Below, piece after piece: positions 35 to 55,495 of a DNA stretch of 64,000 bases. The DNA comes from a virus (taxonomy: Duplodnaviria > Caudoviricetes), in IMG/VR virus record IMGVR_UViG_3300032007_000069, positions 10,328 through 74,327 of that record. One strand, 5' to 3'. Numbering within the stretch: position 1 is the stretch's first letter; every line of letters starts with the position of its first letter. Both the position numbers and the translations under genes were made by a program. The notes under the pieces are model-generated. The model was not told the origin of the DNA. It was given only the letters and a program-made list of their open reading frames with translations, and made no database searches.

Positions 35-3000
35 ATGCGCGACTATGTGGACGCAACCCATGCTGTCACGGAAGGTCGCAAGAAGCTGATTGAGTCATGG
101 GATCAGGGCAAGAAGTCTGTTGAGAACGAGACAGAGGCTGTTGACTACTCCACCATGAGCATCGAGGATTTGGCGAAAGCCGCTGCCGATGCAAGTGACA
201 AGGTGACAGACCTCGGAGATTCCTCTGCCAGTCCGTCAGTAGATAAGACGTCCATTGACGATGCAGGTGATGCAGCCAGCAACACCAAGACAGGCATAGA
301 CCTCTTGAACGGCTTGACAGCCAAGCCTCTCGTTGACACCACCTCTATCGGCATTGCCATCGGTCAGACGAACCAACTGCTCGGCAATATGTTCCAGATT
401 GGTCAGATGGGTGGCGGTCAGAGTTCCTTCAGTCTCGGCTTCAATCCTAACAAGTTCGGCTTCGGTCAGTCCAGCACATTCAGTCTTTGGGGTGGCAAGA
501 AGCCAGTATGGGGAACCATCGGAGGCAAGTCGGGCATTCAGTGGATGCCGGACATTCCCATCACAGACCCAGCTCTGCTTGCTCAGCAGGAGTTGAACAG
601 CCGTGTCAATGGTGCCAATACCCAGAAGAAGGTCGATGATTTGTTGAAAGACGTCAACGATGCCCTCTCCAAGGCTGTCTTCGATAGTCCCGAATACAAG
701 GAGCTTGAAGGCTTGAAGAAGCGCCTTGAAGCCAAGTCAAGGAAAGGCAACAGGAAGTCCGGCAATAAGAATAAGACCAACACAGCCGAGAAGATTGCCG
801 ATGAGCAGGAGAAGCTTGAGGACATGCAGGACGATTTGGCTTTCGAGCGTCTGCGCTCCAAGCAGGACATGGAGGCTCGTATTGCCGATGCCACCATTGC
901 TGCTGAGCAGGATGCAGCCAAGAGAGTACGCATGTACCGTGAACAGCAGAACGCTGAGGAGATTCGTGCCATCGAGAAGCAGTCTGAGGATGCAGTCCGC
1001 AAGTACATCGAGGAGGAGAAGCGTATCTTCGAGCAACAGGAGAAGATCAAGAAGCTCCAGAACCCCAAGTACAAGGAGCAGAAGTTCGACGAGAGTACGG
1101 TAGATACATCTGCCATCACAGCCCAGTATCAGAGGCTCATCGACCTTACTAAGCAGCGCCAGTTTGGTGACATCGCCCGTGAGAACGCTGAGGCTATGAC
1201 TGACTACATGAAGCAGTATGGTAGCCTGCAGGACCAGAAGAGAGCCGTCAATGAGCAATATGAGCGCAAGATAGCCGACGAGTCCAATGCCATCAGACGT
1301 GCAGCCCTGGAGAAGGAGCGTGACGATATGCTTGAGGCTCTTGACTTCCAGCAGCTACAGGAAGAGATAGACTGGGAAGCTGTCTTCAATGACCTCGACA
1401 GGCTGAGCACAAGTTCCCTGCAGGCACTCCATGATAAGTTGAAGGCAGCACTCGACGCAGGTGACATCACAGCGGAGAACGCAAAGGTTATCTCTGAGAG
1501 ACTGTTGGAGATTGAAGACAAGATTTCCGACAAGACGAGCTTCTGGGGTTCCCTCATCCCTGCCTTGAAGGAGCGCGAGAGACTTACCCGTGCAGCCAAA
1601 GCCGCACAGGAGGAGTACAACCGCCTTGTCAAGGAGCAGGAGGCAGCAGAGCAGAAGGTAGTCGAGGCTCAGCAGAAGATACATGACGAGATTGTTTCCC
1701 TCTACGGACAGGACATAGACCTCAGCAAGATCAGTGTCGAGGGTAAGCTTCAGTTGTATAACGAGCTTGGTGTCGATGCCACAACCGCTGCAGGTCAGCA
1801 GCTCACTGAGGCCTTCGGTCTTCTTGAGACTGCCACCATAGACCTCACGAAAGCTGAAGAGGATGCCAAGAACGGCAAGAAGAAGTCTGAGGACGCTAAG
1901 AACCTGCTGAATGGCGGTTCCATCGGTGACATCTTCAAGAAAGCGCAGGAGGCAGGCGGTGGCGGTGTTATGGGTATCATAAGCATCGTCAATCAGAACG
2001 CTCAGAGCCTTGCGGACTTCGTGGATAAGGTTGGTCTCGAGAACACCGACTTCGGTGAGGCAGTACATGGCTTCGCAGACGGTGTGGCTGGTTTCCAGTC
2101 TGCCATCCAGTCGTTGGCCAGTGGCGACATCATAGGAGCAGTGAACGGAGTCCTTGACGGCATAGCAGGCTTCGGTCGCTCGTTCATATCCATCTTCGCA
2201 GGTGGTGGCAATGAGGAGGAAATGGAGAAGCGCATTGAGGAACTGGCTAAGGCCAACGAAGGCCTTTCTTCTGCCATTGACTCCCTCGCTGAGCGTATCG
2301 CAAGCAGTAACACTACAAACAGGGAGTCCGTTGAGGCTTACAAGCAGGCATTCCAGGCAGAGCAGGAATGGGAATCCAACCAGCGAGAAGCCATCAATGC
2401 CCGTGCCTCAGAGTATGCCAACAGCGGTTACGGCTTCCTTGGTCTCGGTGGTAAGCACTCGTTCAACTACTACATGGCCGGCAACGGATGGGAAGGATGG
2501 AAGACCCTCTCTCAGACCTTGAAGGAGCATGGCGAGAATGTCAACGTGAACAAGGATAACTTCTGGTCGCTCACTCCGGAGCAGATGAAGATACTCCGTG
2601 ACTTCGCACCATCCGAATGGGCAGCACTCATGAACGGTGACGGACACAGGAACCCGATAGATTTGGTCAATCAGTACATCGACAGGGCAGGCAAGCTCGA
2701 AGAGATTACGTCCGCCTTGAACGAGAAGCTGACAGGCTACTCATGGGACGGCTTCAGAGACTCCTTCGGCTCACTCCTTACTGATATGAGCAGTGACGTG
2801 GAGGACTTTGCCGACAACATGGAGAATGTCCTGTCGAAGGCCATCCTCAACTCCCTGCTGACAGCGAAGTACAAGGACAGGATTGATGCCTTGTACAAGA
2901 TGATTGCCGATGCAGCGATGGATGATAATATCACCAAGGAGGAGGCTGATGCCATCAGAAACACCAACAAGCAGATTGCCGAGGACATGCTTGCCGACAG

Positions 3001-3355
3001 GCAGATGTTGCAGGATTTGGGTATCATCAATTCCAATGGCTCGGAGTACTCGCAGGAAGCCTCTAAGAAAGGCTTTGCCGCTATGGGGCAGGAAACGGCA
3101 GAAGAGCTGAACGGACGCTTCACAGCCCTCCAGATAGCAGGTGAGACGATTGCCGCACAGGCTGTTCAAATCTACGGACAGATGATAGTGATGAGCCAAG
3201 TCCATGTGTCGAGCAACAGCTACCTCTCAGAGATAAGGAATATGATGATAACGGCCAACTCCTACCTTGAAGACGTGGCGAAGTACAGCAAGAAGATGTA
3301 CCTGGAGTTCACGGAGAAGCTGGATGATCTGGTCGATAACACTAAAAATATGTAA
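35..3355 (+). CDS. Tape measure protein (5' end lies upstream of the window)
   Basis: Long helical, Ala/Glu/Lys/Gln-rich coiled-coil ORF directly before the tail module; the frame is open from position 2, so the real start is outside the window. Confidence 0.8.
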   Translation: MRDYVDATHAVTEGRKKLIESWDQGKKSVENETEAVDYSTMSIEDLAKAAADASDKVTDLGDSSASPSVDKTSIDDAGDAASNTKTGIDLLNGLTAKPLVDTTSIGIAIGQTNQLLGNMFQIGQMGGGQSSFSLGFNPNKFGFGQSSTFSLWGGKKPVWGTIGGKSGIQWMPDIPITDPALLAQQELNSRVNGANTQKKVDDLLKDVNDALSKAVFDSPEYKELEGLKKRLEAKSRKGNRKSGNKNKTNTAEKIADEQEKLEDMQDDLAFERLRSKQDMEARIADATIAAEQDAAKRVRMYREQQNAEEIRAIEKQSEDAVRKYIEEEKRIFEQQEKIKKLQNPKYKEQKFDESTVDTSAITAQYQRLIDLTKQRQFGDIARENAEAMTDYMKQYGSLQDQKRAVNEQYERKIADESNAIRRAALEKERDDMLEALDFQQLQEEIDWEAVFNDLDRLSTSSLQALHDKLKAALDAGDITAENAKVISERLLEIEDKISDKTSFWGSLIPALKERERLTRAAKAAQEEYNRLVKEQEAAEQKVVEAQQKIHDEIVSLYGQDIDLSKISVEGKLQLYNELGVDATTAAGQQLTEAFGLLETATIDLTKAEEDAKNGKKKSEDAKNLLNGGSIGDIFKKAQEAGGGGVMGIISIVNQNAQSLADFVDKVGLENTDFGEAVHGFADGVAGFQSAIQSLASGDIIGAVNGVLDGIAGFGRSFISIFAGGGNEEEMEKRIEELAKANEGLSSAIDSLAERIASSNTTNRESVEAYKQAFQAEQEWESNQREAINARASEYANSGYGFLGLGGKHSFNYYMAGNGWEGWKTLSQTLKEHGENVNVNKDNFWSLTPEQMKILRDFAPSEWAALMNGDGHRNPIDLVNQYIDRAGKLEEITSALNEKLTGYSWDGFRDSFGSLLTDMSSDVEDFADNMENVLSKAILNSLLTAKYKDRIDALYKMIADAAMDDNITKEEADAIRNTNKQIAEDMLADRQMLQDLGIINSNGSEYSQEASKKGFAAMGQETAEELNGRFTALQIAGETIAAQAVQIYGQMIVMSQVHVSSNSYLSEIRNMMITANSYLEDVAKYSKKMYLEFTEKLDDLVDNTKNM

Positions 3356-9206: not shown

Positions 9207-10547
9207 ATGAGTAAAAGTTTGATTAACAAGCCCTACGTTCACCAGATGAGTGACAGCAACTCCATCTTCGGGAACTTTGGCGGAGCGGTGGCCCAGATGA
9301 CCATTGATGAGTTCCGCCAGCACCTCAACGACAACGATGAGGAAGTATTGAACAACCTTGCGTTCTACATAGACGTGAACAAGGCATCAAGCCTCGGTTC
9401 CACCCGTGTAGATGTAGGTGGTAACATGCACATGCGCCAGCTTTGGGAAGACTCTGCTGTAAGTATTCTCATGGATAAGAATGGCAACTACTGCGAGCTG
9501 AACAGGAACGACAACCGCTACACAGCGGAAGGCGACTACCTGTTGCAGAACGACGGGACGATTATCTCGACCTATGCGAACTGCGACTTCATGAAGATTA
9601 TCCCTCAGACCTACGGACGTGTTCAGACGGTGACGGTCGGTGCCACCACCATCGCAAGGCTGTGGCTGTCTCTCGTTCCGCTGCCTGGCGGTTACATCAT
9701 CCCTCAGATGGTTGTCGGCAAGTTCAAGGCAAGCGTTGTGTCGAGCGCCCTGCGAAGCCTCCCCGGACTGGTGACTGCTGACAGCAACACCATCAATGCG
9801 TTCTGGACGAAGGCACAGGCAAGGAGCAAGAACCACGGCTTGGCGAACCTCGACTTCCGTAACCACCTGCTGTTCCACATGATGGCGAAGTATGCCTATC
9901 GTGACTCTCAGAACTGCAAGGGACAGGACAACACACCTATCTGGGGTGTCGGTCTCGACGGAACGGAGAACAGCGGAGGCTTCGACGGTCAGAAGAACAT
10001 CAAGACAGGTATCGTCCTCAGTCTCGGTGACTATGACGGAAACGTGGCCACCACGGATGCCAACAGCAACACTTGCCATTGTGTCAACGTGGCAGGCTTC
10101 GAGAACCCTTGGGGTCAGAAGTGGGAAATGGTACAGGGTCTCTGCTCTGTAGGCACTGATGTCTATTGCTGGAGAAACAACTGGCTACCTACCGGCACTC
10201 CTACGGCTGAGTCGTTTGCCCATGTGGAGCATGTCAAGCTGACACGTGCCACAAGTGCCGTCACAGGCATGAACATCATCGAGAGCCAGCAGGGACAAGG
10301 AGTCTATATGATACCTAAGCAATCCCTCAGCGGTGTAAGCTATGGCGATAACTTCTGGTACGCAGAGGCAGGACAGCTGTGGCTCTGGGGCGGTCCCTCG
10401 TACCGCGGGTCGTCTTGCGGTCTCGCTTATGCGGCCTCGGACTTCGCTTGGTCGGCCTCGTACGCGTACATCTCGGCTCGCCTTGCTTACTATGGTTCCC
10501 TGCAAAAGGTGTCAGCAAGTCGATTGGCGGAACTCGCGGCTGCCTAA
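9207..10547 (+). CDS. DGR target protein 1 (C-type-lectin-like VR domain; probable receptor-binding protein)
   Basis: C-terminal WGG...CGLAY...AWS...ISARL variable repeat matching the TR; GFENPWGQKWEMVQG resembles Mtd/FGE-like CLec folds. Confidence 0.9.
   Translation: MSKSLINKPYVHQMSDSNSIFGNFGGAVAQMTIDEFRQHLNDNDEEVLNNLAFYIDVNKASSLGSTRVDVGGNMHMRQLWEDSAVSILMDKNGNYCELNRNDNRYTAEGDYLLQNDGTIISTYANCDFMKIIPQTYGRVQTVTVGATTIARLWLSLVPLPGGYIIPQMVVGKFKASVVSSALRSLPGLVTADSNTINAFWTKAQARSKNHGLANLDFRNHLLFHMMAKYAYRDSQNCKGQDNTPIWGVGLDGTENSGGFDGQKNIKTGIVLSLGDYDGNVATTDANSNTCHCVNVAGFENPWGQKWEMVQGLCSVGTDVYCWRNNWLPTGTPTAESFAHVEHVKLTRATSAVTGMNIIESQQGQGVYMIPKQSLSGVSYGDNFWYAEAGQLWLWGGPSYRGSSCGLAYAASDFAWSASYAYISARLAYYGSLQKVSASRLAELAAA
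10375..10487 (+). repeat. DGR variable repeat VR1
   Basis: 113 bp aligns ungapped to TR 10698-10810; all 19 mismatches fall at TR adenines. Confidence 0.97.
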
Positions 10548-10574
10548 GCAGTCGCGTTGCGCCCGAAAGGGCGC
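10535..10574 (+). promoter_or_regulatory. Two GC-rich hairpins downstream of VR1 (candidate DGR target-recognition/cruciform element)
   Basis: CGCGGCTGC-CTAA-GCAGTCGCG (10535-10556) and GCGCCC-GAAA-GGGCGC (10559-10574). Confidence 0.6.
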
Positions 10575-10696
10575 TCCGCTTTCCTAAAGTAATAATCAGT
10601 AACAAAGAATGAAAGTTTAACAATTCTGCAGGTCAGACGACCGAAGGAACAAATCTCTCAAAAGCCATTACTTCGATGGTAGGTATAAAGGTATTG

Positions 10697-10810
10697 AAGC
10701 TGTGGATCTGGGGCGGTAACTCGAACAACGGGTCGAATTGCGGTCTCGCTTATGCGAACTCGAACAACGCTTGGTCGAACTCGAACGCGAACATCTCGGC
10801 TCGCCTAACT
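10697..10810 (+). repeat. DGR template repeat (TR)
   Basis: Ten in-frame AAY codons; differs from VR1 and VR2 essentially only at A positions; lies upstream of the RT. Confidence 0.97.
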
Positions 10811-12476: not shown

Positions 12477-12878
12477 ATGAATACAGGACATCTACAGAGA
12501 CGGTTCAGTACTAACCGCCCCGAGGTTTTTGACAAAGAGACTCGCATTGTCTGCCTTGACATTCAAGAGGCTGTGGAGAACGACGAGAACGGACAGGAGC
12601 AGCAAGGCTTCTCCTTCATTCCCGTGGAGATCGACCACCAGATGGACTACGGTCACATCAAGTCTCAGCTGATTGAAGCCGGCTTCGCCCAGAAGGATGA
12701 GTTCGGACTGCTGATGAACTCCGTGGAGAACATCATCAATGCCGTGAAGAACTCAAGCAGCTGGGCAACGTTCAAGTCAGCCTTGAACACCGAGGACATC
12801 GAGACGTTTGTTTCCTTCTGTGAGTTCCGCCGTGAGTGTGCCAATGCCGCTCATGTGGTAATCAGCAACTATCAGTAA
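12477..12878 (+). CDS. Hypothetical protein downstream of the DGR RT
   Basis: 133 aa ORF with A-rich Bacteroidota-type start context. Confidence 0.65.
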   Translation: MNTGHLQRRFSTNRPEVFDKETRIVCLDIQEAVENDENGQEQQGFSFIPVEIDHQMDYGHIKSQLIEAGFAQKDEFGLLMNSVENIINAVKNSSSWATFKSALNTEDIETFVSFCEFRRECANAAHVVISNYQ

Positions 12879-12884
12879 GCGCCT

Positions 12885-15800
12885 ATGAAAATCAAAGGAG
12901 CATTTCCTGTCCGATGGGCTGCGCAGGATGGAGCACCTGGTACTGGAGTCACTATCGTGCAAGCCTTGTGCTTCACGAAGTATGCCTCAAGCAACTCCGG
13001 CACCACCCATCCTGCGGACTCGTCGAGCGACTGGAAGACATCAGTACCCACGGTAGCCAATGGCAACTACCTGTGGACGTGGACGCATGTTCACTATTCG
13101 GATGGCACGCACACCGATTCCTATTCCGTGTCGAGGATGGGTATTGACGGTGTAGGTATCATTTCGTCTGTCACGAAGTATTGTCAGAAAGCCAACACGA
13201 ACACGGCACCGGAGAACTTCCCAGAAAGCGACTGGGGAGCGTTCCCTACCAACCTCGTGAACGACTACTGGCTGTACACTCGGACGATAGTGACGTACAG
13301 CAACCAAGACACCGCCATCAGCTATGACGTGGCTCAGATAGGCCAAGGCTCATACTATGCAGGGTGCCAGGAGTACTATTGCGTGTCTAACGATGGTGAC
13401 AATGCTCCTTCGGGCTATCCCAACTCCAAGCCTTTCGTGGACGGTGTGGCTACTTATGCCAATGGTGAGGCATGTAACGTGACAGGCTCATGGAGCACGT
13501 CCAAGCCTACGGCAAACAACTCCACCCCGTACATCTGGAACTTCGAGATCAGCTACGACAGCCGAGGCAACAAGTATGTCACACGTCCTGTCAGAATAGG
13601 CAACTTCGCCAAGGGTATCTCCAGCATCGTCGAGACGTACACCATCAGCTCCCACAATGACGTGGAGAGCATGTTGGCAGACTTGACGGAGCGTGGCGAC
13701 TACCAGTGGCAGGACGAGCAGCATGCAGCCGTTCCGACTGACGAGTACCCGTACCAATGGAACAAGACGGTCGTGAACTATAACAACGGCAGTCCGGACA
13801 CGTACTACCATATCAGTGCCGTGAAGGGTGCCGACGGCAAAGGCTCGACGTACATTGACCTCGACAATGAGAACGATTCCATGCTCTATGACGGAGCAGG
13901 GAACCTCATAGGCGGTAACAGCGGATGGGTGACGAGTAACATCAGCCTCTACTCGAATGGTCAGAAGATAACCTCCAACCTGCCTACATTCTCCATCAAG
14001 GAACGCAGCGCGTCCATCACCTCCGCCAATGCGGTTATCAGCGGACAGGTGTTGACCGTGAAAGGCCTCACGGGAGATAGCGGCTGGGTCGTTGTCAAGT
14101 GTACCTACAATAACGTGGAGTACACGGCAAAAATGACCATCAAGAGGCTCGTGGGAGTGGATAAGTATGAGCTTCAGCTGAACCACAACGCTGTGTCGTA
14201 CAATACGACGACAGGTGTGCTTTCCAACACCGATATAGCGGTCAATGTGTACAGGACAGCACAAAACGGCTCACGCACGAAGGTCACTACCATGGCCACC
14301 TATACGCTTACTGCCAAGCTATACCCGAACGGAGCGAGCACGAACTCAAGGAGTATCACCTTCAACTCCAGCGGTAACGGAACGGCAAGCATCACTGCAG
14401 AAGAGGCAGCGGCATGGACGAACTTCGCCATCGTGCTCTTCAAGAACGGCAGTGAGGTTGACCGAGAGACCATCCCCATCAACAAGGCACAGAACGGTGG
14501 CCAAGGTCCTGGTGCCATCATCCTTGACCTCGACAACGAAAATGACTCGATGCTGTATGACGGGGCGAATAACAAGCTGTCGGGTAACGTCACCTCACAG
14601 GCAAGGTTGCTCGATGCCGGAGAGGATAAGACCTCTGACGTCACGAACTGGGACTTGGTGGATAAGACCAACGTCACGGGTTCCATCAACGGCAGCGGAC
14701 TTGTCACCATCACGGCTATCAGCGCAACGTCCGGCAGTGCCGTGGCTGTCGCCACCTACGGAGGCCAGCAGTATAGGGCGAAAATCACCATCAAGAAACT
14801 GGTCGGTGTGGATAAGTTCGAGATTGTCTGCTCTCCAAATGCGCTGACGTACAACACGACGAAAGCCACGAACCAGCAGCAGGCGGTGAATGTCAAGGTG
14901 TACCGCACAGGCCAGAATGGAGCGCGGTCGCTTGTCGCCAGTCTCTCCACCTATGGTCTGAAGTTGAGGTACTACTGGCAGACGACACAGGGAGGTACAT
15001 GGGGAGGCCCTTCGTCCATCACGGACGGAACTGAGGACGGCAAGTACAACAGCGGTGCAGACAAGACCCTGTATGCGAACATGTACTATGCCTATCGGTA
15101 TGAGCTTCTTGACTCGGATAATGTCATTCTCGATGTCGAGACGGTGCCTATCAGCAAGACCTCTGACGGAGAGGGCAAGGATGCTATCATGCTCGACTTG
15201 GATAACGAGAACGATTCCATCCTGTACGATGGTGCCGACAACCCTGTTTCCGATGTCGTGGTCAGCACGGGAAGCCTCTATAAAGGACCGAACAAGGTGA
15301 CGAGCGGCATCACATGGAGCATCGCCTCTGTCGAGGGCTGTACGATGATGAACAACGGTGCAGCGACAAGCAGCAGCTACTCACGCTCCAACTATCCCAC
15401 GGCAGCATGGATAAGCTCCAATGGTCTCGTGAAGGTCAACGGCTTGTCTGCCTCACAGGGCAAGGTGGTGGTGAATGCTCACTATGGCGATAACGACTAT
15501 CAAGCCACCCTCACCTTGAAGAAGCTGAGAGGTGTCGATAAGTATGAGCTGGTTCTGAAGCCTGCGGCATTGACGTACAACTCCACCACGGGTTTGGTGA
15601 ATGGCGCGTCTTCCGCAACCGTGATTGCTGAGATCTGGAGAACGGCACAGAATGGTGACAGGACGCTGGTTGACGACTTCAACGGAGCCAATCAGTACGG
15701 CTTGTCGATTGTCGTCACTCCGGATGCAGGAAGCCTCTCGGGTTCAACACCTAAGAGCTATGGCCTCGATTTCGCTGTCAGCAGCTCGCTTGCCAACACG

Positions 15801-18623
15801 GCATCGAATATCGCTGTGACGCTGAAGAAGGGAACCATGACCTATGACAGCGAGACCATTCCCATCGCCAAGACGACGAATGGTAGCGGTTCTCCTGGTC
15901 CTGCAGCCAAGGCCATCTATCGCCTGTCGTTCGCTCAGCCTGCCACTCCTACGGGTGCAAGCCCACAGGGTAGCGGTGCCCTCGCATGGCATGACGACCC
16001 ATTCGTGCAGGATGATGTCAAGATAGACCTCCAAGGTGACTGGTTCAGAGACACGGACGGCTTCATGCGTGCCCCTGCAGTCGGAACGTATCAGTACGTT
16101 CATGAGACCCTTTCGTTCGTGACCACAGCGAGCAACCAGAAAGTGTACCTCAGAGTGAAGGCAACGCTCGGCAGCGGTTCGTACATAAGAATCGGAAACC
16201 TCGATGCGACGGTTCCTGCAACCGACTACATGCGTAGCGTGAGCGGAAGCAACCAGGACACTGGAGATATTGAGGTGACCGTGCCTTACGCAGGTACGCA
16301 CTTCATCATTGTGAGGTACTATCGAGGCGGAAATACAGACACCTATGCCAAGTTCGCCTGTGGCAAGATGGACGTCTGGCAGTCCAACGCTAAGACGTAC
16401 AATGCAGCAGGAACCATCACGGCATGGAGCACACCTTTCAAGGTAGGCTCTGACAGCGAGTCGGATTCCTCTGAGACCCATGCGAACATCTTGAAGCAGA
16501 CAGCTTTCATCGCTAACAAGATGGATGCCTGGCTGACGAAGAACGGCTCAACCTCTGAAGGTACTGGAGGCAGGAACTCATACGTCGGTGATCCCGATTA
16601 CGGCTCTTCCATCAAGGAGCTGCTGATGCAGTCTGTATGGGAACCGGACGGTGACCAGCCTCTCAAGGCGAGCAAGTGGTACACGCTGTCCTTCTGGGCA
16701 AAGTCGAAGCCTTACATTCAGATTACGAAGAATGAGACCAGCAATGCCTATGGTTTCGCAAGGGTCAAGCCCATCTACTTCGAGGCAGGTGTGACCAACA
16801 CCATTTGGGTGAACGGCTATGTCTCTTCTGCAGCCAAGAACGCAGGAAAGAGTCTGAGGGTGTTCGTCTATGGTGACGGAGAGAATGACGGATGGGGCAG
16901 CACAATCGCTTCGGTGAAGATTGAAGCCACGTCTGCCACTACTGCCAGCGCCACCTTCACGGTTCCGACGACAGGATGGTACAACATCATGGCATACGTC
17001 TATTTGGAGCCTAACGGAGGCAATAGCCCCGTCGATGGCCAGACAGCCCGTGTGAACTACTATCGTGTCGATAGGGGCATGAGGATGAGGACGTACCTCT
17101 ATCCGAACTGCAATAATGGCGAGCAGTCCAGCTACACAGCCATTGACACCTCAGCAGGTCGTATCTTGGACGGTCAGATGCTCTCTACCTCTCCTACCGA
17201 CAACGGAGCGGAGTTCAAGCTCACTGAGGACTGGACGAAGCACACGTTGGTCTTCAAGACGAGAAGCTATATCCCGAACAAGCGCCAGCAGTTCTTGATA
17301 AGGATGCACGAGGCTTGCAACGGCATATACGTCTGTATGCCTAAGCTCGAAGAGGGCACACAGGCTACAGGCTACGTGACCAATGACAATGACCCCGTGG
17401 ATCTTGCCATCGAGGAAACCGGATTCCCGAACGACAGAGGTGTATGGGTAGAGTCACCTGCCACCCCTTACCAATGGAATGATACGAGCCGCGACTATGT
17501 GGCTTCATCAGTCAGCGGTGAGTGGAAGCGCTACTTCGTCAAGAAGAAGGGTATGGTAGTACCTAACGGCACAGGCCCGACAAGCGGTGGCAACAGCTAT
17601 TGGGAAGAAGGTTCGAGGATAAGCACTCTTTTGGTGAACACCATCGTAGGTGCGAATGCCGAGATTACCTTCGCCAAGAGCAACCGCATCCTTGTCACCA
17701 ATGCAAACGGAACGGTAGCCGCTGGTATGGGCGGTGCTGAGAACGGCAACGACGACTATCCTCTGTGGGTGGGCGCCACCTATGCGAACAGAGCCAACGC
17801 TCCGTTCAAGGTGTCCCTGGCAGGAAAGCTGTATGCCAATGGCGCGGTTATCATGGGTAAGATTACAGGCTCAGTCAGAAACCCCTTCTGCAGGACTGAC
17901 AACATACCCACGGACTACAATGGCGACAACCTTGCGCTGGTGTCTTCTTCGTCTGGAACCGTGACCATCGTGACGGGAACCTTCAATATGATGATGGGAA
18001 GCAACCCAGCCAATATGAGCGGTAGAACCATCAGACTTGTTGCAGGTAAATGGGGCAACACCTATGGAAACGGAACGGCTACGGTCTATTTCCGTGACAA
18101 CAGCTCTTACAACACCTACCCGATTTGGGAGAACGGTCACGAGGTTGACCATATCAGCATTTCAAACGAGGTGGTCGAGCTGCTTGGCTATGGTGACGGC
18201 AGTACCTTCTTCGGTTGGATAGTTCTGAACAGGATTGACTTCATGACGAATGCCCAGTATGGTGTCGGTGCGAAGTGTCTGATGTACGGAAAGATTACAG
18301 GTACTCCGAGCGGTTTGACAAGAAACTACTTGAAGGCCTTCGACGCATCGAGCATCACCATATCGAGGACGAACACGGGTCTGTACAAGATTACCGTGCC
18401 TACATCATGGAAGCTGTCAACGAACCACCTGCTTGTGCTGGCCACTCCTGTAGGCTATATCTATAACGGAAGTAATATGCTGTTCTGCTCGGTCGAGAGC
18501 ATAGAGACTGACAGCTCCGGATATGTCAGCGCTTTCACCCTGCAGTGTTCTGACGACCAGTCAAGGAACGACGGTTGTATCAGCTTCGCGGTGTTTAACA
18601 TGAACGATTGGACGAACTATTAG
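12885..18623 (+). CDS. Large tail fibre/host-specificity protein with three internal repeats
   Basis: 1912 aa, Thr/Ser/Asn/Gly-rich; N-terminal WKTSVPTVANGNYLWT-type anti-receptor repeats; DLDNENDSxLYDG occurs three times. Confidence 0.7.
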   Translation: MKIKGAFPVRWAAQDGAPGTGVTIVQALCFTKYASSNSGTTHPADSSSDWKTSVPTVANGNYLWTWTHVHYSDGTHTDSYSVSRMGIDGVGIISSVTKYCQKANTNTAPENFPESDWGAFPTNLVNDYWLYTRTIVTYSNQDTAISYDVAQIGQGSYYAGCQEYYCVSNDGDNAPSGYPNSKPFVDGVATYANGEACNVTGSWSTSKPTANNSTPYIWNFEISYDSRGNKYVTRPVRIGNFAKGISSIVETYTISSHNDVESMLADLTERGDYQWQDEQHAAVPTDEYPYQWNKTVVNYNNGSPDTYYHISAVKGADGKGSTYIDLDNENDSMLYDGAGNLIGGNSGWVTSNISLYSNGQKITSNLPTFSIKERSASITSANAVISGQVLTVKGLTGDSGWVVVKCTYNNVEYTAKMTIKRLVGVDKYELQLNHNAVSYNTTTGVLSNTDIAVNVYRTAQNGSRTKVTTMATYTLTAKLYPNGASTNSRSITFNSSGNGTASITAEEAAAWTNFAIVLFKNGSEVDRETIPINKAQNGGQGPGAIILDLDNENDSMLYDGANNKLSGNVTSQARLLDAGEDKTSDVTNWDLVDKTNVTGSINGSGLVTITAISATSGSAVAVATYGGQQYRAKITIKKLVGVDKFEIVCSPNALTYNTTKATNQQQAVNVKVYRTGQNGARSLVASLSTYGLKLRYYWQTTQGGTWGGPSSITDGTEDGKYNSGADKTLYANMYYAYRYELLDSDNVILDVETVPISKTSDGEGKDAIMLDLDNENDSILYDGADNPVSDVVVSTGSLYKGPNKVTSGITWSIASVEGCTMMNNGAATSSSYSRSNYPTAAWISSNGLVKVNGLSASQGKVVVNAHYGDNDYQATLTLKKLRGVDKYELVLKPAALTYNSTTGLVNGASSATVIAEIWRTAQNGDRTLVDDFNGANQYGLSIVVTPDAGSLSGSTPKSYGLDFAVSSSLANTASNIAVTLKKGTMTYDSETIPIAKTTNGSGSPGPAAKAIYRLSFAQPATPTGASPQGSGALAWHDDPFVQDDVKIDLQGDWFRDTDGFMRAPAVGTYQYVHETLSFVTTASNQKVYLRVKATLGSGSYIRIGNLDATVPATDYMRSVSGSNQDTGDIEVTVPYAGTHFIIVRYYRGGNTDTYAKFACGKMDVWQSNAKTYNAAGTITAWSTPFKVGSDSESDSSETHANILKQTAFIANKMDAWLTKNGSTSEGTGGRNSYVGDPDYGSSIKELLMQSVWEPDGDQPLKASKWYTLSFWAKSKPYIQITKNETSNAYGFARVKPIYFEAGVTNTIWVNGYVSSAAKNAGKSLRVFVYGDGENDGWGSTIASVKIEATSATTASATFTVPTTGWYNIMAYVYLEPNGGNSPVDGQTARVNYYRVDRGMRMRTYLYPNCNNGEQSSYTAIDTSAGRILDGQMLSTSPTDNGAEFKLTEDWTKHTLVFKTRSYIPNKRQQFLIRMHEACNGIYVCMPKLEEGTQATGYVTNDNDPVDLAIEETGFPNDRGVWVESPATPYQWNDTSRDYVASSVSGEWKRYFVKKKGMVVPNGTGPTSGGNSYWEEGSRISTLLVNTIVGANAEITFAKSNRILVTNANGTVAAGMGGAENGNDDYPLWVGATYANRANAPFKVSLAGKLYANGAVIMGKITGSVRNPFCRTDNIPTDYNGDNLALVSSSSGTVTIVTGTFNMMMGSNPANMSGRTIRLVAGKWGNTYGNGTATVYFRDNSSYNTYPIWENGHEVDHISISNEVVELLGYGDGSTFFGWIVLNRIDFMTNAQYGVGAKCLMYGKITGTPSGLTRNYLKAFDASSITISRTNTGLYKITVPTSWKLSTNHLLVLATPVGYIYNGSNMLFCSVESIETDSSGYVSAFTLQCSDDQSRNDGCISFAVFNMNDWTNY
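13857..15890 (+). repeat. Three tandem ~223-aa repeat units inside the tail fibre
   Basis: DLDNENDS codons start at 13857, 14526 and 15195 (669-nt period); VGVDKY/FEL and ETI/VPIxK also recur; end coordinate is approximate. Confidence 0.85.
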
Positions 18624-25577: not shown

Positions 25578-25844
25578 ATGCAGTTCGGTATAAACTGGAA
25601 CGATGGCTACGAAGTGACCGTGCTGATGGTCGGAGAACATGGCTTTCTGAGGCACTTTCCCTTGCGCAACTTCGGAGAGCACCAAGGCGATGCGAGAATC
25701 TTCAAGGAGGTCGATTGCCCGAAGCTGACAGATGCCCAGATCCGTATGCTGATTAAGAACTACGACCCGAAAGTGAAGTACAAGCGGATAAGCGGAACGA
25801 GGTTTGTCCGTGAGAAGGTCACAGACCAAGAACGTAGTCAATGA
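25578..25844 (+). CDS. Hypothetical protein
   Basis: 88 aa, convergent with and overlapping the integrase 3' end. Confidence 0.55.
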   Translation: MQFGINWNDGYEVTVLMVGEHGFLRHFPLRNFGEHQGDARIFKEVDCPKLTDAQIRMLIKNYDPKVKYKRISGTRFVREKVTDQERSQ

Positions 25845-27033
25845 CCTTGCGGTTGGCTTCGTCCACCTTGCGATAGTCCGGAGCGATATAGATGGCTGTT
25901 GTCTTGTTGCCATACGAATGGCCCAAGGCAGCAGTTATCGTTTCGCGCGGTATGTCGAGCTGGTTGGCGATGGTTGCCCATGAGTGCCTGGCCACATAGA
26001 CGGAAAGACCAGGAAAGGCAGACAGGTACTCCAGAACTCGCTTCCCATCCTTCATGACGTGCCTGCGTGGTCCGATTTGCTTCAATGCCCTGTTGATTGT
26101 GCTTGTGTATGTGTGAGCGTCCTTGAAGTTGTCGGCTACGTTGAGCAGCTTCTTGGCTCCCCTGTAGCGGTCGATGATTTCCTGTGCCTCCGGCTCAACC
26201 TTGATGTTATAGGGTCTGGAGGTTTTGGAACGCTGGTATATAATTCTACCATCCTCGACTTTTTCGAGGTCACAGAGGTCAACAACGTTGATTCCGATGA
26301 GGTAAAATATCAGCTTAAACATGTCGAGGTACTTACGCTCGTGTGGCAGTACGGGATAGTTGAACAGCTCCCTCAGCCTCTCGACGGAGTATGCTCGCTT
26401 GATGGTTGGCACAGGTCTCACCATGAACTTGCGGAAAGGGTAGTTGTCTGTGATGTCGTTGTCGATGGCATCGTTGAACACGGCTCGGATATTGCGGAAG
26501 TGGATGCTCCTGGTATTCTGTGACGGCTCGAAGTCCATGAGGAAGGTGTCGAACTTCGTGAGCCAGTCCTTGTTGATCTGCTCGAAGGAGAGTTGTCCGG
26601 CCTTGGTGTCGTACTGCTCGATGCGCTTCAGAGTCTCTTGGTAGATTTCCCTTGTGCGCTGTTTCTTACGTGATGCGGTGTAAGCCTTGAAGCGCGACAG
26701 GAACAGATTGCTGTTCTCTGCCATAGGGTCAAGCCTCTCCAGAACGATGTTCTTGATTTGGACGGCAGTCTTCTTGGTCAGCTCTCCGTCTGCAGTCATT
26801 TGAAGCAGTAGGTTGTCGATTCTCTGCTTCAAAGTCTGAATGTATGAGTTGAGCTGAACTTTGTTCGGGCAGTCCTTGACCTTGCCGATACGTTTGTCCC
26901 ACTGGCTTGGCAGTATCTTGACATGAATGGAGAGGAGAGCGGTGTCGCTCTTCTTCGTGATGGCCAGCTTGAGCGGTGCAGGCTCGCCATGCTTGATTGC
27001 CCTTGTGTCGAGATAAAGCTTTGTCGTTACCAT
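25819..27033 (-). CDS. int: Tyrosine integrase (Bacteroidales type, arm-DNA-binding N-terminus)
   Basis: KLYLDTR arm-binding N-terminus; GINVVDL (catalytic Arg region degenerate), YQRSKT, YVARHSWATIA, ALGH and TAIY residues; adjacent att core. Confidence 0.92.
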   Translation of the reverse strand: MVTTKLYLDTRAIKHGEPAPLKLAITKKSDTALLSIHVKILPSQWDKRIGKVKDCPNKVQLNSYIQTLKQRIDNLLLQMTADGELTKKTAVQIKNIVLERLDPMAENSNLFLSRFKAYTASRKKQRTREIYQETLKRIEQYDTKAGQLSFEQINKDWLTKFDTFLMDFEPSQNTRSIHFRNIRAVFNDAIDNDITDNYPFRKFMVRPVPTIKRAYSVERLRELFNYPVLPHERKYLDMFKLIFYLIGINVVDLCDLEKVEDGRIIYQRSKTSRPYNIKVEPEAQEIIDRYRGAKKLLNVADNFKDAHTYTSTINRALKQIGPRRHVMKDGKRVLEYLSAFPGLSVYVARHSWATIANQLDIPRETITAALGHSYGNKTTAIYIAPDYRKVDEANRKVIDYVLGL

Positions 27034-39016: not shown

Positions 39017-39127
39017 AAAGTTAAACTATATGTAGCACAGGCGATTATAGGATTTTCCGTTTGGTCAAATGCAAAAAATTGGCTATCTTTACAGCATATA
39101 AGAAACATTCATAATTCAAGAGCAATG
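39017..39127 (+). promoter_or_regulatory. Class I promoter/leader module 3
   Basis: AAAGTTAAA 39017, TATCTTTA 39084, TATAAGAAACA 39097, AAGAGCAATG 39118. Confidence 0.7.
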
Positions 39128-39983: not shown

Positions 39984-40349
39984 ATGGAAAAAGAAATGAC
40001 GCTCAATCAGTATCAGCGGTGTGCACTCGAAACGGCAGTGTACCCGAAAGAGTTCAAGACCATCTATCCGGCTCTCGGTTTGACTGGAGAAGCTGGAGAG
40101 GTCTCAGACAAAGTGAAGAAAGTCCTGCGTGACTCGGAGGTGATTATCCGTGACGGTGCAGGCTCCATCGTTCTGCCAGATCAGAAGCGAGAGGAGTTGG
40201 CCAAGGAGGTCGGTGACGTCCTTTGGTATGTGGCAACCCTCGCACACGACATCGGCTATTCGCTGGAAGAGATAGCAGTGATGAACTACGAGAAGTTGAA
40301 GTCTCGCCAGCAGCGTGACCAGCTTCATGGAAGTGGTGATAATCGTTGA
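39984..40349 (+). CDS. mazG: MazG-like nucleotide pyrophosphohydrolase
   Basis: [16 protein letters not shown] and KEVGDVLWY motifs. Confidence 0.88.
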
Positions 40350-40369: not shown

Positions 40370-40978
40370 ATGAAAGAAATTGTAGTAGCAGTCCCGGACG
40401 GCAAAAGAGCTGAATGGGTGAATGGTGTGCTCACACTCGTTGACGACGTTGTGGAAGCCACGAAAGACGAGCGTCCTGTAATGGAACGCATCAAGACGTT
40501 TGAAGATGCCTGCGATGAAGTTGGCAGACTTGCCGAAAGAGGTAACGAAGGCCTTGCCACACTACTGGCAGACTATGAGTCCAATGCTGACAACATCAAG
40601 ACGAAGGGTACGCTGGCATACATGAAGCTGTGCATCATAGCGGCAGCTCTCAACGAAGGTTGGGAACCTCAGTTCACTACTGACGAATACCGCTGGTACC
40701 CTTGGTTCACATTATGGACGAAAGAGGAACTGACAGACAAGACCGAAGAGTGGAAGCAGGAGCATAAGCTGTGGTGGGGCGGTTCCTCGCTCCTCGGGTC
40801 GCTTTGCGGTCTCGCTTATGCGCGCTCGGCCCCCGCTTGGTCGCACTCGGCCGCGTGCATCTCGGCTCGCCTTGCTGTCAAGTCAGAAGAGTTGGCAGAC
40901 TACTTCGGAAAGCAGTTCATTGAGATTTGGGCAGACTATGTTGGCCCGTTTAACCTAAAGGAAGAAAGTGATGATTGA
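40370..40978 (+). CDS. DGR target protein 2 (remote, non-structural region)
   Basis: Contains VR2; IAAALNEGWEP...YRWYPWF core; starts at AAGAGCAATG. Confidence 0.9.
   Translation: MKEIVVAVPDGKRAEWVNGVLTLVDDVVEATKDERPVMERIKTFEDACDEVGRLAERGNEGLATLLADYESNADNIKTKGTLAYMKLCIIAAALNEGWEPQFTTDEYRWYPWFTLWTKEELTDKTEEWKQEHKLWWGGSSLLGSLCGLAYARSAPAWSHSAACISARLAVKSEELADYFGKQFIEIWADYVGPFNLKEESDD
40766..40876 (+). repeat. DGR variable repeat VR2
   Basis: Aligns to TR 10697-10810 with 21 substitutions, all at TR adenines, plus one 3-nt gap (ATC) near the 5' end. Confidence 0.95.
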
Positions 40979-42143
40979 TAAGCTGAAAGTTTATGCACGG
41001 ACGATAGAAGATGAAGCCGTGCAGCAGATTGACAAGATGAACGGCTGTGATGCGTACAAGGATTGCCTGGTGCGCATCATGCCGGACTGCCATGCAGGTA
41101 TCGGTTGCACGATAGGTACGGTCATTTACCTGCAGGACAGGATAGTTCCCAATACGGTAGGTGTTGACATCGGCTGTGGTATGCTGGTCACCTGTCTCGG
41201 CAAGCAGGAGGTGGACTTGGAACGTCTCGATGAGGTAATCAATGAGAAGATACCTTCGGGCTTCAATATCCATGACAAGCAGCGTCGAGCCTTCCACCTG
41301 CTCGACAAGATGTACTGCAAGGAAGTCATTGACGAAGACATGGCTCTGCGAAGCATCGGCTCCCTCGGTGGTGGCAACCACTTCATCGAATTGGATGAGG
41401 ATGGTAACGGCAACAAGTACCTTGTCATTCACAGCGGAAGCCGAAACCTCGGCAAGCGAGTGTGTGACTACTGGCAGAAGAAAGCTGTTGACTACTGCAA
41501 GAAGCAGCAGTGCGATGAGCAGGAGATTATCGCACGTCTGAAAGCAGAAGGTCGTGAGCGTGAGATTTCAGCAGCCATAGCGGAAGCCAAGTCAAAGGCT
41601 GGTAAGATTGACAAGGAGCTGGCATACGTCGAAGGTACGGATGCCTCTCACTACCTGTTCGACATGATGATCTGCCAGAGCTATGCAAGCGAGAACCGCC
41701 ACACCATGGCCGACATCATCTGCCGTGAAATGGGATTGAAGGTGGAGCGTCAGTTCCAGACCATCCACAATTACATCGACCTGCAGCACAAAATCCTGCG
41801 TAAGGGAGCAGTAAGCGCCCTCAGAGGCGAGGAACTTCTGATACCCATCAACATGCGTGATGGCTCGCTCCTCTGTGTCGGCAAGGGCAACCTTGACTGG
41901 CTCTACTCAGCGCCTCACGGTGCCGGACGTCTGATGTCTCGCAAGAAAGCCAAGGAAACGCTCGACATGGCAGACTTCGAGAAGTCGATGGAGGGTGTCT
42001 ATACCACCTCGGTTTGCGAGAGCACGATAGATGAGGCTCCGATGGCGTACAAGCCCATGAAGGAGATCCTGGAGTGCATCGAGCCGACGGTGGAAGTGGT
42101 AGCGGTAATCAAGCCCTTGTACAATTTCAAGGCGAAGCAGTAA
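40968..42143 (+). CDS. rtcB: RtcB RNA ligase
   Basis: MPDCHAG, VGVDIGCG, GGGNHFIE, IHSGSR, HNYID, SAPHGAGR, DEAPMAYK. Confidence 0.95.
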   Translation: MMIDKLKVYARTIEDEAVQQIDKMNGCDAYKDCLVRIMPDCHAGIGCTIGTVIYLQDRIVPNTVGVDIGCGMLVTCLGKQEVDLERLDEVINEKIPSGFNIHDKQRRAFHLLDKMYCKEVIDEDMALRSIGSLGGGNHFIELDEDGNGNKYLVIHSGSRNLGKRVCDYWQKKAVDYCKKQQCDEQEIIARLKAEGREREISAAIAEAKSKAGKIDKELAYVEGTDASHYLFDMMICQSYASENRHTMADIICREMGLKVERQFQTIHNYIDLQHKILRKGAVSALRGEELLIPINMRDGSLLCVGKGNLDWLYSAPHGAGRLMSRKKAKETLDMADFEKSMEGVYTTSVCESTIDEAPMAYKPMKEILECIEPTVEVVAVIKPLYNFKAKQ

Positions 42144-52202: not shown

Positions 52203-52275
52203 GCTTCGATAGCTCAGTAGGTAGAGCAACAGCCCTTTAAGCTGTGGGTCCATGGTTCGAGTCCATGTCGTGGCA
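52203..52275 (+). tRNA. tRNA-Lys(UUU) with C33
   Basis: Full cloverleaf; anticodon stem ACAGC/GCTGT, loop CCTTTAA; one T-T mismatch in the acceptor stem; CCA not encoded. Confidence 0.85.
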
Positions 52276-52284
52276 CAGACTGAT

Positions 52285-52372
52285 GAGCTTGTATGGCTTA
52301 CGCAAGTAAGAGGTAAAGGGAAGCCAGATGTAGATGCTGGCAACGATGCAGGTTCGAGTCCTGTCAAGTTCG
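52285..52372 (+). ncRNA. tRNA-like element with non-canonical D and anticodon arms (Tyr-like GTA in loop)
   Basis: Acceptor GAGCTTG/CAAGTTC and T arm GCAGG-TTCGAGT-CCTGT are present; the interior does not form a standard cloverleaf. Confidence 0.55.
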
Positions 52373-52378
52373 GACGTT

Positions 52379-52452
52379 TAGCAGTTAGCTCAGTTGGTAG
52401 GAGCGCCCGATCGTTAATCGGGAGGTCATGGGTTCGAGTCCCATACTGCGTT
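52379..52452 (+). tRNA. tRNA-Asn(GUU) with U32/C33
   Basis: Anticodon stem CCCGA/TCGGG, loop TCGTTAA; T arm ATGGG-TTCGAGT-CCCAT; only 5 clear acceptor pairs. Confidence 0.75.
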
Positions 52453-52456
52453 CTAA

Positions 52457-52535
52457 TTGGTGTCCGTTACGGAGCAAGTAAGTCCAGATTCCAAATGGCA
52501 TGCAGCCACTCCGGCAATTACCGAAACGGCACCAA
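52457..52535 (+). ncRNA. Unidentified structured RNA in the tRNA cluster
   Basis: Closing stem TTGGTG(T)CCGTT/AACGGCACCAA; inner CGGAG/CTCCG and TGGC/GCCA stems. Confidence 0.4.
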
Positions 52536-52538
52536 CAT

Positions 52539-52611
52539 CGCGGAATAGAGCAGATGGTAGCTCGGCTGGCTCATAACCAGCAGGTCGCAGGTTCGAGTCC
52601 TGCTTCCGCAA
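52539..52611 (+). tRNA. tRNA-Met(CAU), initiator-like
   Basis: C1-A72 mismatch, initiator-type GAGC/GCTC D stem, loop CTCATAA; only two of the three anticodon-stem G-C pairs. Confidence 0.88.
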
Positions 52612-52617
52612 CAAAGA

Positions 52618-53496: not shown

Positions 53497-55495
53497 GACA
53501 GTTGGTTTTGAACTTGAAATATCTGATGTGAAGCGGAGCGATGTATTCGTTCCGCAAGGCTATAGCTGGAGCCGTGAGGAAACACTCTACGGCACAAACG
53601 GCAAGCGTCAATCCCCCACCTCATTGCTCGGAGGCGAGTTGAACACCAGGCCACTATCTTTCACCCATGAGGATATGGAAGAACTGCGCAAGGTGTTCAA
53701 CTCATTTTTTGAAGCCGGAGGGAACGTCATGTGGTGCAACTACTTCCATTGCCATGTGTGGGTAGGTGACTTCACGCTGGATGAGCTGAAAAACGTGTTC
53801 CTGCTGACATATCACACGAACAGGTTCATCAAGGCATACTGCGATGTGAAGCCGTACAGGGAGTTCAACCTGTGTTGTCCTACACCCACCATCGAGTATG
53901 TGGAGAAGTGCCGTGAGGCGGAATCCTTTGAGGCCCTGCAGAACGTCTTCAAGAACAGCAGCAACAAAGGCTATATAAGGCACTTGGTGAACATCAATTC
54001 GTATTGGAAGGTGCAGACGGTGGAGTTTCGTATGTTCGCATCGACACGCAACTTCGACGAGCTGGTAGCATCAGCGTTCTTTGCCATGCGCTTCGTGAAC
54101 TATGCTAAGAACCACACGGAGGAGGACTTCAAGAAGATCCGCTCGATGGAGGACTTCCAGAGGGAATTGAAGATACACATGCCTGTGGCGAAAGTGCTGC
54201 CACACCTCATCAACGCAGGTGACCAGATGTCAGAGAGCGACCGCTTCGTGTCGAGGGTAATCAAGTATTCCTCTCCTATGGTGAAGCTCATCGTGGAGAA
54301 CTGCGGTGACGAGTTATGCTGTGTGAACCCCAATATGTTCGGTCTTGAAATGTCGCTGTTCCCGAAGTTGAAGAGGCTGAGCATCTACAACACCAACGAG
54401 TTCAACGACGTGCTGTATCGGATGGCTACGCAAGGTCTGAAGATACGCTACAAGGATAAGATGGAGTTTCTGGAGCAGTATGCCGACGGTACACCCGAAA
54501 TGGAGATAGTGCGTCTGATGATGTTCCACAGAATACGCAAGTTCATCGCAGACAACGACTATGCGAGGAAGTCCTTTGAGGCCATCGTGTCAGTATTGCC
54601 GGACAGCATCACGAAGGGCTTGGAGGTGGCTCGTAAGATGGTGCAGATGCTTCAGTCGTGCAAGTATGTCAGAGGTACGCTGAATGACGCTCTGGAGAAT
54701 GAGAATGTCGTCTTCTATCAGTATGAGGGTCTGCCGAAGCTGAACAGCACCCTCCATCATCTGGAGAAGCTGTCGGACTTCAAGGCGACGATGGAGCCGA
54801 TGCTAACCAACTATCAAGGTGTGACGGAGAATCTGAAAGAGGGACAGAGGTTGTTCGTTGCCAGCATGGACCAGTATCTCTCGCTCAATCGCCTTGGTTC
54901 TGTGAATGGTCTGATATTGTACTCCAATATCGGTTCCGAGAAGACGAAGGTCTCTGCCTCATTTGAGCCTGTCTATCAGTTCGGCTTCAAGATACCTCCA
55001 GACGATTTGGAGATAGACGACCCGAAGAAGCTGATGATTGTCCCTGCACAGGGCAAGCAGTTCACCATCCTGCAGCACGCTTTCGTGAAGAAGGTGGCCA
55101 GCTTCATGAGCGGACGCTTTCAGTTCATCGTGTACTACGACAACTATGTGCTTGGTGCCTTTGCCTTCGACCTGCCCAAGGCTGAGGGTTATGATGTATG
55201 GCTGCTGTCAGACTTCACGACGAATAACCAGGTGAAGCGGTTGGCGAAGCTCATCCTCCTGTGCATCAAGTCGGCTCCAGTGAAGAAGTTCCTGTCGAGG
55301 AAGCTCCAGCGCACGGCTGAGAAGATGTACACGAAGGTCTATACCACCAGACCTGTTTCCATGAAGTATCGTGGCCCGTTCAAGAAGGTGAAGATAGAGG
55401 GCATGGATAAGGGCTTGGTCTATGAGGCAGATTTCGGTTCGTCCGGAAATGGAGAGGATATTATCAGAGAATATCAAAAAATCATTCAACGATGA
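53483..55495 (+). CDS. Fusion: COOH-NH2 amidoligase (type 2) + degenerate MTase-like + GNAT/Mom-like domain
   Basis: VGFELE, GGELNTRP, HCHVWV and LVN...TVEFRMF in the N-terminus; GAFAF, LLSDF, RLAKLIL and PVSMKYRG in the C-terminus. Confidence 0.7.
   Translation: MTMNRTVGFELEISDVKRSDVFVPQGYSWSREETLYGTNGKRQSPTSLLGGELNTRPLSFTHEDMEELRKVFNSFFEAGGNVMWCNYFHCHVWVGDFTLDELKNVFLLTYHTNRFIKAYCDVKPYREFNLCCPTPTIEYVEKCREAESFEALQNVFKNSSNKGYIRHLVNINSYWKVQTVEFRMFASTRNFDELVASAFFAMRFVNYAKNHTEEDFKKIRSMEDFQRELKIHMPVAKVLPHLINAGDQMSESDRFVSRVIKYSSPMVKLIVENCGDELCCVNPNMFGLEMSLFPKLKRLSIYNTNEFNDVLYRMATQGLKIRYKDKMEFLEQYADGTPEMEIVRLMMFHRIRKFIADNDYARKSFEAIVSVLPDSITKGLEVARKMVQMLQSCKYVRGTLNDALENENVVFYQYEGLPKLNSTLHHLEKLSDFKATMEPMLTNYQGVTENLKEGQRLFVASMDQYLSLNRLGSVNGLILYSNIGSEKTKVSASFEPVYQFGFKIPPDDLEIDDPKKLMIVPAQGKQFTILQHAFVKKVASFMSGRFQFIVYYDNYVLGAFAFDLPKAEGYDVWLLSDFTTNNQVKRLAKLILLCIKSAPVKKFLSRKLQRTAEKMYTKVYTTRPVSMKYRGPFKKVKIEGMDKGLVYEADFGSSGNGEDIIREYQKIIQR

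Follow-up and report, generated by a model that had tools for sequence, protein, structure and literature searches.

The gene under study lies on the plus strand of a 64,000-nucleotide stretch of DNA (the whole stretch analysed, hereafter the window) which, judged from its sequence, is most of the genome (~74 kb) of a temperate gut Bacteroidales phage. The host phylum was taken to be Bacteroidota because homologues occur in Bacteroides, Phocaeicola, Prevotella and Cryptobacteroides phages and MAGs. The gene encodes a 202-aa protein, P0001, and contains a variable segment (VR2) that is related to the TR of a DGR located 30 kb away. The features of the window used in this study are as follows.

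35-3355: tape measure, followed by distal tail genes
9207..10547, plus strand: target gene 1, encoding the 446-aa tail-like protein P0002 (phrog_5302 tail protein, E=4e-21), after the tape measure and distal tail genes
10375..10487, plus strand: VR1, at the 3' end of target gene 1
10698..10810, plus strand: TR, the sole template repeat of the genome
11026..12456, plus strand: RT, P0003, 476 aa (RVT_1, E=2.5e-8, above the curated cut-off; phrog_1423, E=7e-50)
19649: endolysin
25819-27033, minus strand: integrase
39079..39106, plus strand: promoter-like motif GGCTATCTTT.CA...TATAAGAAAC, ahead of the operon ORF279-MazG-P0001-RtcB
39984..40349, plus strand: MazG-like pyrophosphatase (PF03819, phrog_229), directly upstream of P0001 and in the same place in close relatives
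40370..40978, plus strand: target gene 2, the remote target, encoding the 202-aa P0001 (ORF; phrog_11581; no Pfam family)
40766..40876, plus strand: VR2, codons 133-169 of the 202-aa gene, with ten diversified AAY-derived codons
40859..40876, plus strand: 3' end of VR2, a GC-rich stretch that does not vary, then TTGCT (IMH-like); VR1 ends in the same way, and the TR has AACT instead
40968..42143, plus strand: RtcB RNA ligase (PF01139, E=6e-62; phrog_1075, E=6e-131)
52203-52612: three tRNAs, Lys(UUU), Asn(GUU) and Met(CAU), ~10 kb downstream of RtcB
57411: TerL
60387: portal

A Sak4-like annealing protein, a helicase and DnaD-like and DnaC-like loaders are encoded between the integrase and ORF279. 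The target operon then runs in the order ORF279, MazG, P0001 and RtcB, with an HNH-like protein next, and an amidoligase gene follows the tRNAs. The presence of both tRNAs and RtcB is suggestive of a response to anticodon nucleases. The RT adjoins the TR, beginning 215 nt after it, and has a C-terminal extension of ~140 residues. Directly after the DGR cassette lies a 1,912-aa ORF (12885-18623) that matched no PHROG (E<=1e-5) and no Pfam family (E<=1). We also noted PRTRC_E and Prok_Ub genes downstream of the target region in relatives (L094:14167-15042); the corresponding block of the window, at ~47.8-51.3 kb, is a ubiquitin-like PRTRC module carried by a phage.

VR2 is a target of the single TR

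VR2 is a genuine DGR target of the single TR. Ungapped comparison of TR positions 10709-10810 with VR2 positions 40775-40876 revealed 21 mismatches, 21/21 of which fall on TR adenines: 19 lie in ten AAY codons and 2 in the end motif (CTAACT in the TR, CTTGCT in the VR). No mismatch was observed at the 76 non-A positions of the TR (0/76), and the chance that all 19 body mismatches would land on the 22 TR adenines is 1.8e-17. The nine bases at the 5' end of VR2, AAGCTGTGG (40766-40774), agree with the TR as well once a 3-nt gap is allowed for. This gap corresponds to one TR codon, ATC, that is missing from VR2, indicating that the 5' end of VR2 has not been refreshed since that deletion. VR1 (10386-10487) has 16 body mismatches with the TR, all at A, and is read in the same frame as VR2. 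Both VRs end in ...CTCGGCTCGCCTTGCT, the TR equivalent being ...CTCGGCTCGCCTAACT; the ends ...GCTCGCCTTGCT of VR1 and VR2 and ...GCTCGCCTAACT of the TR have the appearance of an IMH and an IMH*, respectively. A similar difference between VR and TR ends was found in five other genomes (G001-G005) and in phage Versailles. These comparisons corroborate the original prediction, made from the sequence of the window, that VR2 matches a single TR with 21 substitutions at TR adenines and a 3-nt gap, and that the two VRs share one end motif distinct from the TR end. Its count of A positions lost in AAY codons (19/20 in VR2, 16/20 in VR1) was the same when repeated.

With the end motif set aside, all TR adenines lie in AAY, TAT or ATC codons, and stop codons therefore cannot arise by mutagenesis. 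When the window was searched against itself at low stringency with the VR2 region, two other copies were recovered (10386-10487 and 10709-10806). Across the whole 74,327-bp, 99%-complete IMG/VR record there are three repeat copies in total, with a single TR. The VR scaffold, with N in place of each A, was used as an exact pattern against IMG/VR and gave no match.

In the window, 73% of the TR adenines are changed in VR1 and 86% in VR2; in relatives, the corresponding range for either VR is 38-70%. The near-total loss of A in VR2 had been read as a sign of selection or of repeated partial homing. If each template A is fully randomised, a 75% change is expected, and at least 19 of 22 would be changed with P=0.16. 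Since the observed 19/22 fits random replacement, neither selection nor repeated homing is necessary to account for the loss of A, and we have abandoned that explanation.

VR2 differs between near-identical relatives

A protein search with P0001 returned 4,236 clusters at 90% identity. DNA was compared for the four closest relatives (L101-L104), which come from other samples in four unrelated sequencing runs and are 97-98% identical to the window outside the VR. Relative to the window, three of them (L102, L103 and L104) have 8-15 differences in the 498 nt outside the VR and 19-27 in the 111 nt inside it. When the window and all four relatives were taken together, 22/22 TR-A positions varied between samples versus 5/76 of the others (Fisher, 1.8e-17).

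The same pattern was apparent in an alignment of 56 P0001 relatives (>=58% identity). Mean entropy of the ten AAY codons of VR2 was 3.2 bits, compared with 0.94 for the rest of the VR. When the columns of the protein were ordered by variability, nine of the ten took the first nine places and the tenth came eleventh; TAT and ATC, the other A-containing codons of VR2, likewise were raised in variability. VR1 behaved in a like manner in its own family (3.0 versus 0.49 bits), which suggests that VR2 varies in nature about as strongly as the tail target. VR2 almost certainly is an active DGR target at present. The original prediction had allowed for a fossil target, recognisable by a lack of A-specific polymorphism in populations; A-specific variation was instead found among near-identical relatives.

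It could be argued that VR2 was once diversified but has recently become frozen in this genome, with homing no longer possible. VR2 has lost 3 nt that the TR retains, no hairpin follows it, and decay or fixation is seen in related lineages, all of which would be consistent with this. However, the end motif of VR2 is intact and equal to that of VR1, none of the 76 non-A positions has changed, and the nearest relatives (98% identical outside the VR) hold independent A-specific variants. Furthermore, the hairpin is absent from VR2 of every active-looking relative, so its absence is normal. We give very little credence to a frozen VR2.

Some relatives show other forms of VR. In L094 (10001-10609) the VR end motif is degraded (GCTCTCATTTCT), and in the L097-L100 lineage one identical VR variant, with non-A differences from the window TR, was present on at least 10 contigs from several samples. 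These two lineages possibly have inactive targets or use a different TR. L104 (2475-3083; protein P0006) and P0008 contain compensating indels in the 5' VR (-4 and +1 nt relative to the window), yielding a short frame-shifted stretch within the VR. This could reflect assembly from a mixed population or a real variant.

Hairpins and Avd

VR1 of the window is followed by GC-rich hairpins (z -3.65), and the region after VR2 folds no better than shuffled sequences (z +0.9), as expected from the earlier observation that no VR1-like hairpin is visible downstream of VR2. In all six genomes examined (the window and G001-G005), a strong GC hairpin lies 60-100 nt past VR1, beyond the stop codon, and none follows VR2. 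The absence of a hairpin at VR2 can be attributed to the ORF, which runs on for ~100 nt there. Since it is absent after every VR2 examined, its absence is the norm for this class of target and no sign of decay. The VR1 hairpins may be simply terminators, and the BPP-1-type downstream hairpin/cruciform is not universal among DGRs. A 7-bp stem right after VR2 (40876-40898) was considered and discarded, being weak, insignificant and not kept in relatives.

Recognisable Avd is absent from many DGRs. When the window was searched for Avd, the small ORFs around the TR and RT had no Pfam match at E<=1, and the 133-aa ORF after the RT (12477-12878) matched neither Pfam nor PHROG. The gap between target 1 and the TR is too small for Avd.

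P0001 is encoded with non-structural genes

P0001 matches phrog_11581 with E=2.2e-46, residues 23-191 aligning to profile positions 30-191 of 200. Read from the sequence, the last 8-11 nt of its gene overlap the start of RtcB. The endolysin and TerL genes of the window are 20 kb and 17 kb away from it, respectively. Its start context is AAGAGCAATG, of which there are 12 exact plus-strand occurrences between 21.6 and 59.6 kb, often after CATCTAAA, and none in the tail module (21632, 21967, 23992, 25189, 27973, 30443, 35025, 39118, 40363, 46856, 59176 and 59568). If up to one mismatch is allowed, 22 matches are found versus 6.7 expected. The GGCTATCTTT.CA...TATAAGAAAC motif, which looks like a phage-specific promoter, precedes four of the AAGAGCAATG sites (21632, 23992, 39118 and 59176), and the site at 39118 heads ORF279-MazG-P0001-RtcB. 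The distribution of these two motifs indicates that, as far as sequence can tell, the P0001 gene belongs to the non-structural expression class. The initial description of this locus, as a 202-aa gene between mazG and rtcB that begins with AAGAGCAATG, lies within a non-structural operon and encodes no signal peptide, proved accurate in each respect. ORF calls and domain matches agree on the gene order, the motif was found in the sequence, and the neighbours are replication and nucleotide-metabolism genes. A sequence check of P0001 revealed no N-terminal hydrophobic segment, signal peptide or long hydrophobic segment.

The remote target belongs to a large family

A profile search of 1.8 billion representatives (E<=1e-3) identified phrog_11581-type relatives of P0001 in 2,317 clusters at 50% identity. 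A P0001 relative is encoded on 319 IMG/VR contigs, and prophage copies of the family occur in Bacteroidaceae, Cryptobacteroides and Prevotella MAGs. Megablast of the 10 kb around the P0001 gene against deposited phages gave no match.

In ten genomes, among them the window, G001-G005, G020, BI-TP1 and Versailles, a single TR beside the RT corresponds to two VRs, one nearby in a tail-like gene and the other in a distant P0001 homologue. Comparison at the nucleotide level showed that the mismatches in these two-target genomes are A-specific and that the VR and TR ends differ. The RTs of G001-G005 range from 76% to 25% identity with the window RT, and TR sequences differ between lineages. In BI-TP1 the homologue is 44% identical to P0001, and its VR matches a TR 56 kb away with 14/14 mismatches at A. 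Versailles (ON453897.1), a prophage of OMM12 B. caecimuris, has a two-target DGR with the TR at ~53832-53943, VR1 at ~53630-53741 and VR2 at ~10550-10661.

An RT was present in 19/24 records that are >=90% complete and carry a P0001 homologue (20 counting G020). Three complete or near-complete records (G031, G036 and G038, the sources of L051, L058 and L064) keep the homologue and have no RT or TR. Their homologues retain an S/Y/G-rich VR-like segment, a 68%-identical copy of which remains in another gene of G031, and look like fossil targets after loss of the DGR. In G026, a TR/VR pair is present but does not match the P0001 homologue.

In the genomes examined, the family is invariably flanked by genes for replication, recombination, DNA modification or RNA repair, and no structural gene was among its neighbours; examples of flanking genes are NinG, helicase, methyltransferases, PAPS reductase, exonucleases, Thy1, Dam and RtcB. 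Adjacency to MazG and RtcB was rejected as a general feature, being confined to close relatives, with different neighbours in 80 more distant IMG/VR loci. The N-terminal extensions of longer family members matched no PHROG and no known family. A Tad2-like match on the extension of one long member (E=0.0011, below the cut-off) was not seen in other members and was set aside.

We considered whether P0001 is a virion accessory adhesin or decoration protein that is encoded outside the structural module and whose VR varies host or mucus binding. Some phages do encode decoration proteins away from their structural genes, as T4 does with hoc and soc, and P0001 contains the same TR-encoded 36-residue segment as the tail-like protein. 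Moreover, the great majority of phage DGR targets known so far are proteins of the surface or of receptor binding (PMC12636319, PMC10743442). Against this, the gene lies in replication/DNA-modification operons in every genome examined. In the window it has the leader and promoter class of non-structural genes and is translationally coupled to RtcB. The P0001 and P0002 families have only 41 VR columns in common by BLASTP and profile-profile comparison, and the "tail protein" label on the Versailles homologue derives from a match to the VR alone. VR1 and VR2 carry an identical new base at 3-5 template-A positions per genome, which is about the chance level and so gives no hint of a common ligand. 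A virion role thus appears unlikely, and P0001 probably is a non-virion protein.

Predicted structure of P0001

AF2 models of P0001 had pLDDT values of 73 and 81, the latter with a 105-sequence alignment, and of 51-57 in the VR. The protein is predicted to consist of an N-terminal beta-hairpin (12-25), a three-helix bundle (44-95), loops, the VR and two C-terminal helices. The scaffolds known from DGRs are the C-type-lectin fold, which the literature assumes for such targets, and the Ig fold; neither was recovered by Foldseek (PDB), VIA-align or PDB profile search, the VR itself being poorly modelled. No match from Foldseek or from VIA-align (48,161 chains) exceeded Z 4.8, and the matches were to three-helix bundles over residues 42-100 alone. 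Pfam analysis found no family for any of the 105 members and no CLec-type family at E<=0.1. BFVD returned uncharacterised members of the P0001 family only, and a protein feature search returned only its own viral family. A profile of the VR1 family had no match in the PDB.

One reading of these results is that phrog_11581 represents a third DGR scaffold, neither C-type lectin nor Ig, in which a helical protein has been grafted with the loop of the tail protein and acts as a re-randomised cytoplasmic counter-defence binder. We regard this as quite unlikely. If true, a third-scaffold binder would be conserved across phages whose RTs are only 25% identical.

Proposed mechanism and function

Reasoning from BPP-1, we consider it most likely that the DGR works by standard retrohoming, a single TR supplying two acceptor sites with a common end motif. 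The TR, which adjoins the RT (10.7-12.5 kb), would be transcribed, and the RT would copy the transcript while inserting a random base wherever the template has an adenine. The resulting cDNA would replace either VR1, in the tail-like gene 300 bp upstream of the TR, or VR2, 30 kb away. Homing would be guided by the GC-rich 3' end motif that is identical in both VRs and absent from the TR. P0001 would be co-transcribed with MazG and RtcB in the replication/accessory region, its helical scaffold presenting a loop of ten randomised residues.

The most likely function of P0001, we infer, is that of a cytoplasmic hypervariable binder. As to its purpose, a counter-defence role, in which it would bind host defence proteins, is our leading candidate, although less likely than not. 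Alternatively, P0001 may be expressed in the lysogen as a sensor or superinfection-exclusion factor, its loop recognising proteins of competing phages and not host defences. The phage is temperate, with an integrase at 25819-27033, and discussions in PMC8008677 and PMC12629997 note connections between the DGR targets of bacteria and systems of defence and signalling. However, no effector domain is fused to P0001 or consistently adjacent to it, the N-terminal extensions of the longer members had no match to a known family, and the gene is located in a lytic replication operon, away from the integrase/repressor. We therefore view an exclusion sensor as very unlikely. Taken as a whole, the data lead us to lean, by a little, towards VR2 being an active trans target within a cytoplasmic, non-virion hypervariable binder that serves in phage-host conflict.

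Comparison with known DGRs

The DGR of BPP-1 has one local target, a tail-fibre C-type-lectin protein (Mtd); it also includes Avd, and its IMH is followed 4 bp later by a hairpin. It has in common with the window DGR a TR, an RT, adenine mutagenesis and stop-proof AAY codons. In both, the VR is located towards the 3' end of the ORF, and the GC-rich end motif is not the same in the VR as in the TR. Unlike BPP-1, the window has a remote second target that is not followed by a hairpin, and no Avd was found. In tentaclin-type DGRs, as in the window, one TR serves two proteins and the VRs vary independently (PMC10743442). In the tentaclin systems the cassette itself contains both targets, which are regarded as receptor-binding C-lec proteins (PMC10743442), whereas the second target of the window is 30 kb off in the replication module. 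The tentaclin paper (PMC10743442) and a 2025 gut-virome atlas treat phage targets as tail proteins.

The remote target is not without precedent: the same layout, with a tRNA ligase nearby, has been published for Quimbyvirus (PMC8008677) and for four cultured prophage species (PMC12629997). Quimbyvirus ('Quimbyviridae'), a Bacteroidota gut phage, has one TR and two VRs (Benler et al. 2021, PMC8008677): VR1 is just past the tail-fibre genes, and VR2 belongs to a distal gene that is apparently non-structural, with a nuclease, methyltransferases and a tRNA ligase no more than 7 kb away. Adenine-specific substitutions were described across near-identical Quimbyvirus genomes, and a role in phage-host conflict was proposed (PMC8008677). 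Compared with the published description, the window phage has a layout of the Quimbyvirus type, with a VR in the tail module and a distal VR near RNA-ligase genes. Unlike the RT of Quimbyvirus, which is split over three overlapping frames, that of the window is one 476-aa ORF. The distal Quimbyvirus target was called a C-type-lectin protein, whereas P0001 gave no match to such a family or fold.

A 2025 study in Nature of induced gut prophages reported four species, including LoVEphage relatives, with a second distal VR near counter-defence genes, and likewise speculated on a counter-defence role (PMC12629997). BI-TP1, which is LoVEphage-like, has a remote target of the P0001 family, as does the window. 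P0001 neighbours MazG and RtcB; the phages of that study have methyltransferases in this position (PMC12629997). A second DGR target is not mentioned in the LoVEphage or Versailles descriptions, and our search of the literature on remote phage targets found no functional test.

The window DGR is a further case of the published double-VR phage DGRs and introduces no new principle, and the function of non-structural targets was already raised as a question in 2021 and 2025. This study adds that the remote targets form one large family, whose link to DGRs persists although the RTs and TRs are very different. It also adds population evidence that VR2 is active and diversified as strongly as the tail target, and casts doubt on the fold. 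The family is present in cultured, inducible phages, namely BI-TP1, PV4-TP1, LoVEphage isolates and Versailles (OMM12 Bacteroides caecimuris). Knowledge of phage DGRs is nearly all about receptor-binding proteins, and non-structural targets point to variation that acts inside the cell.
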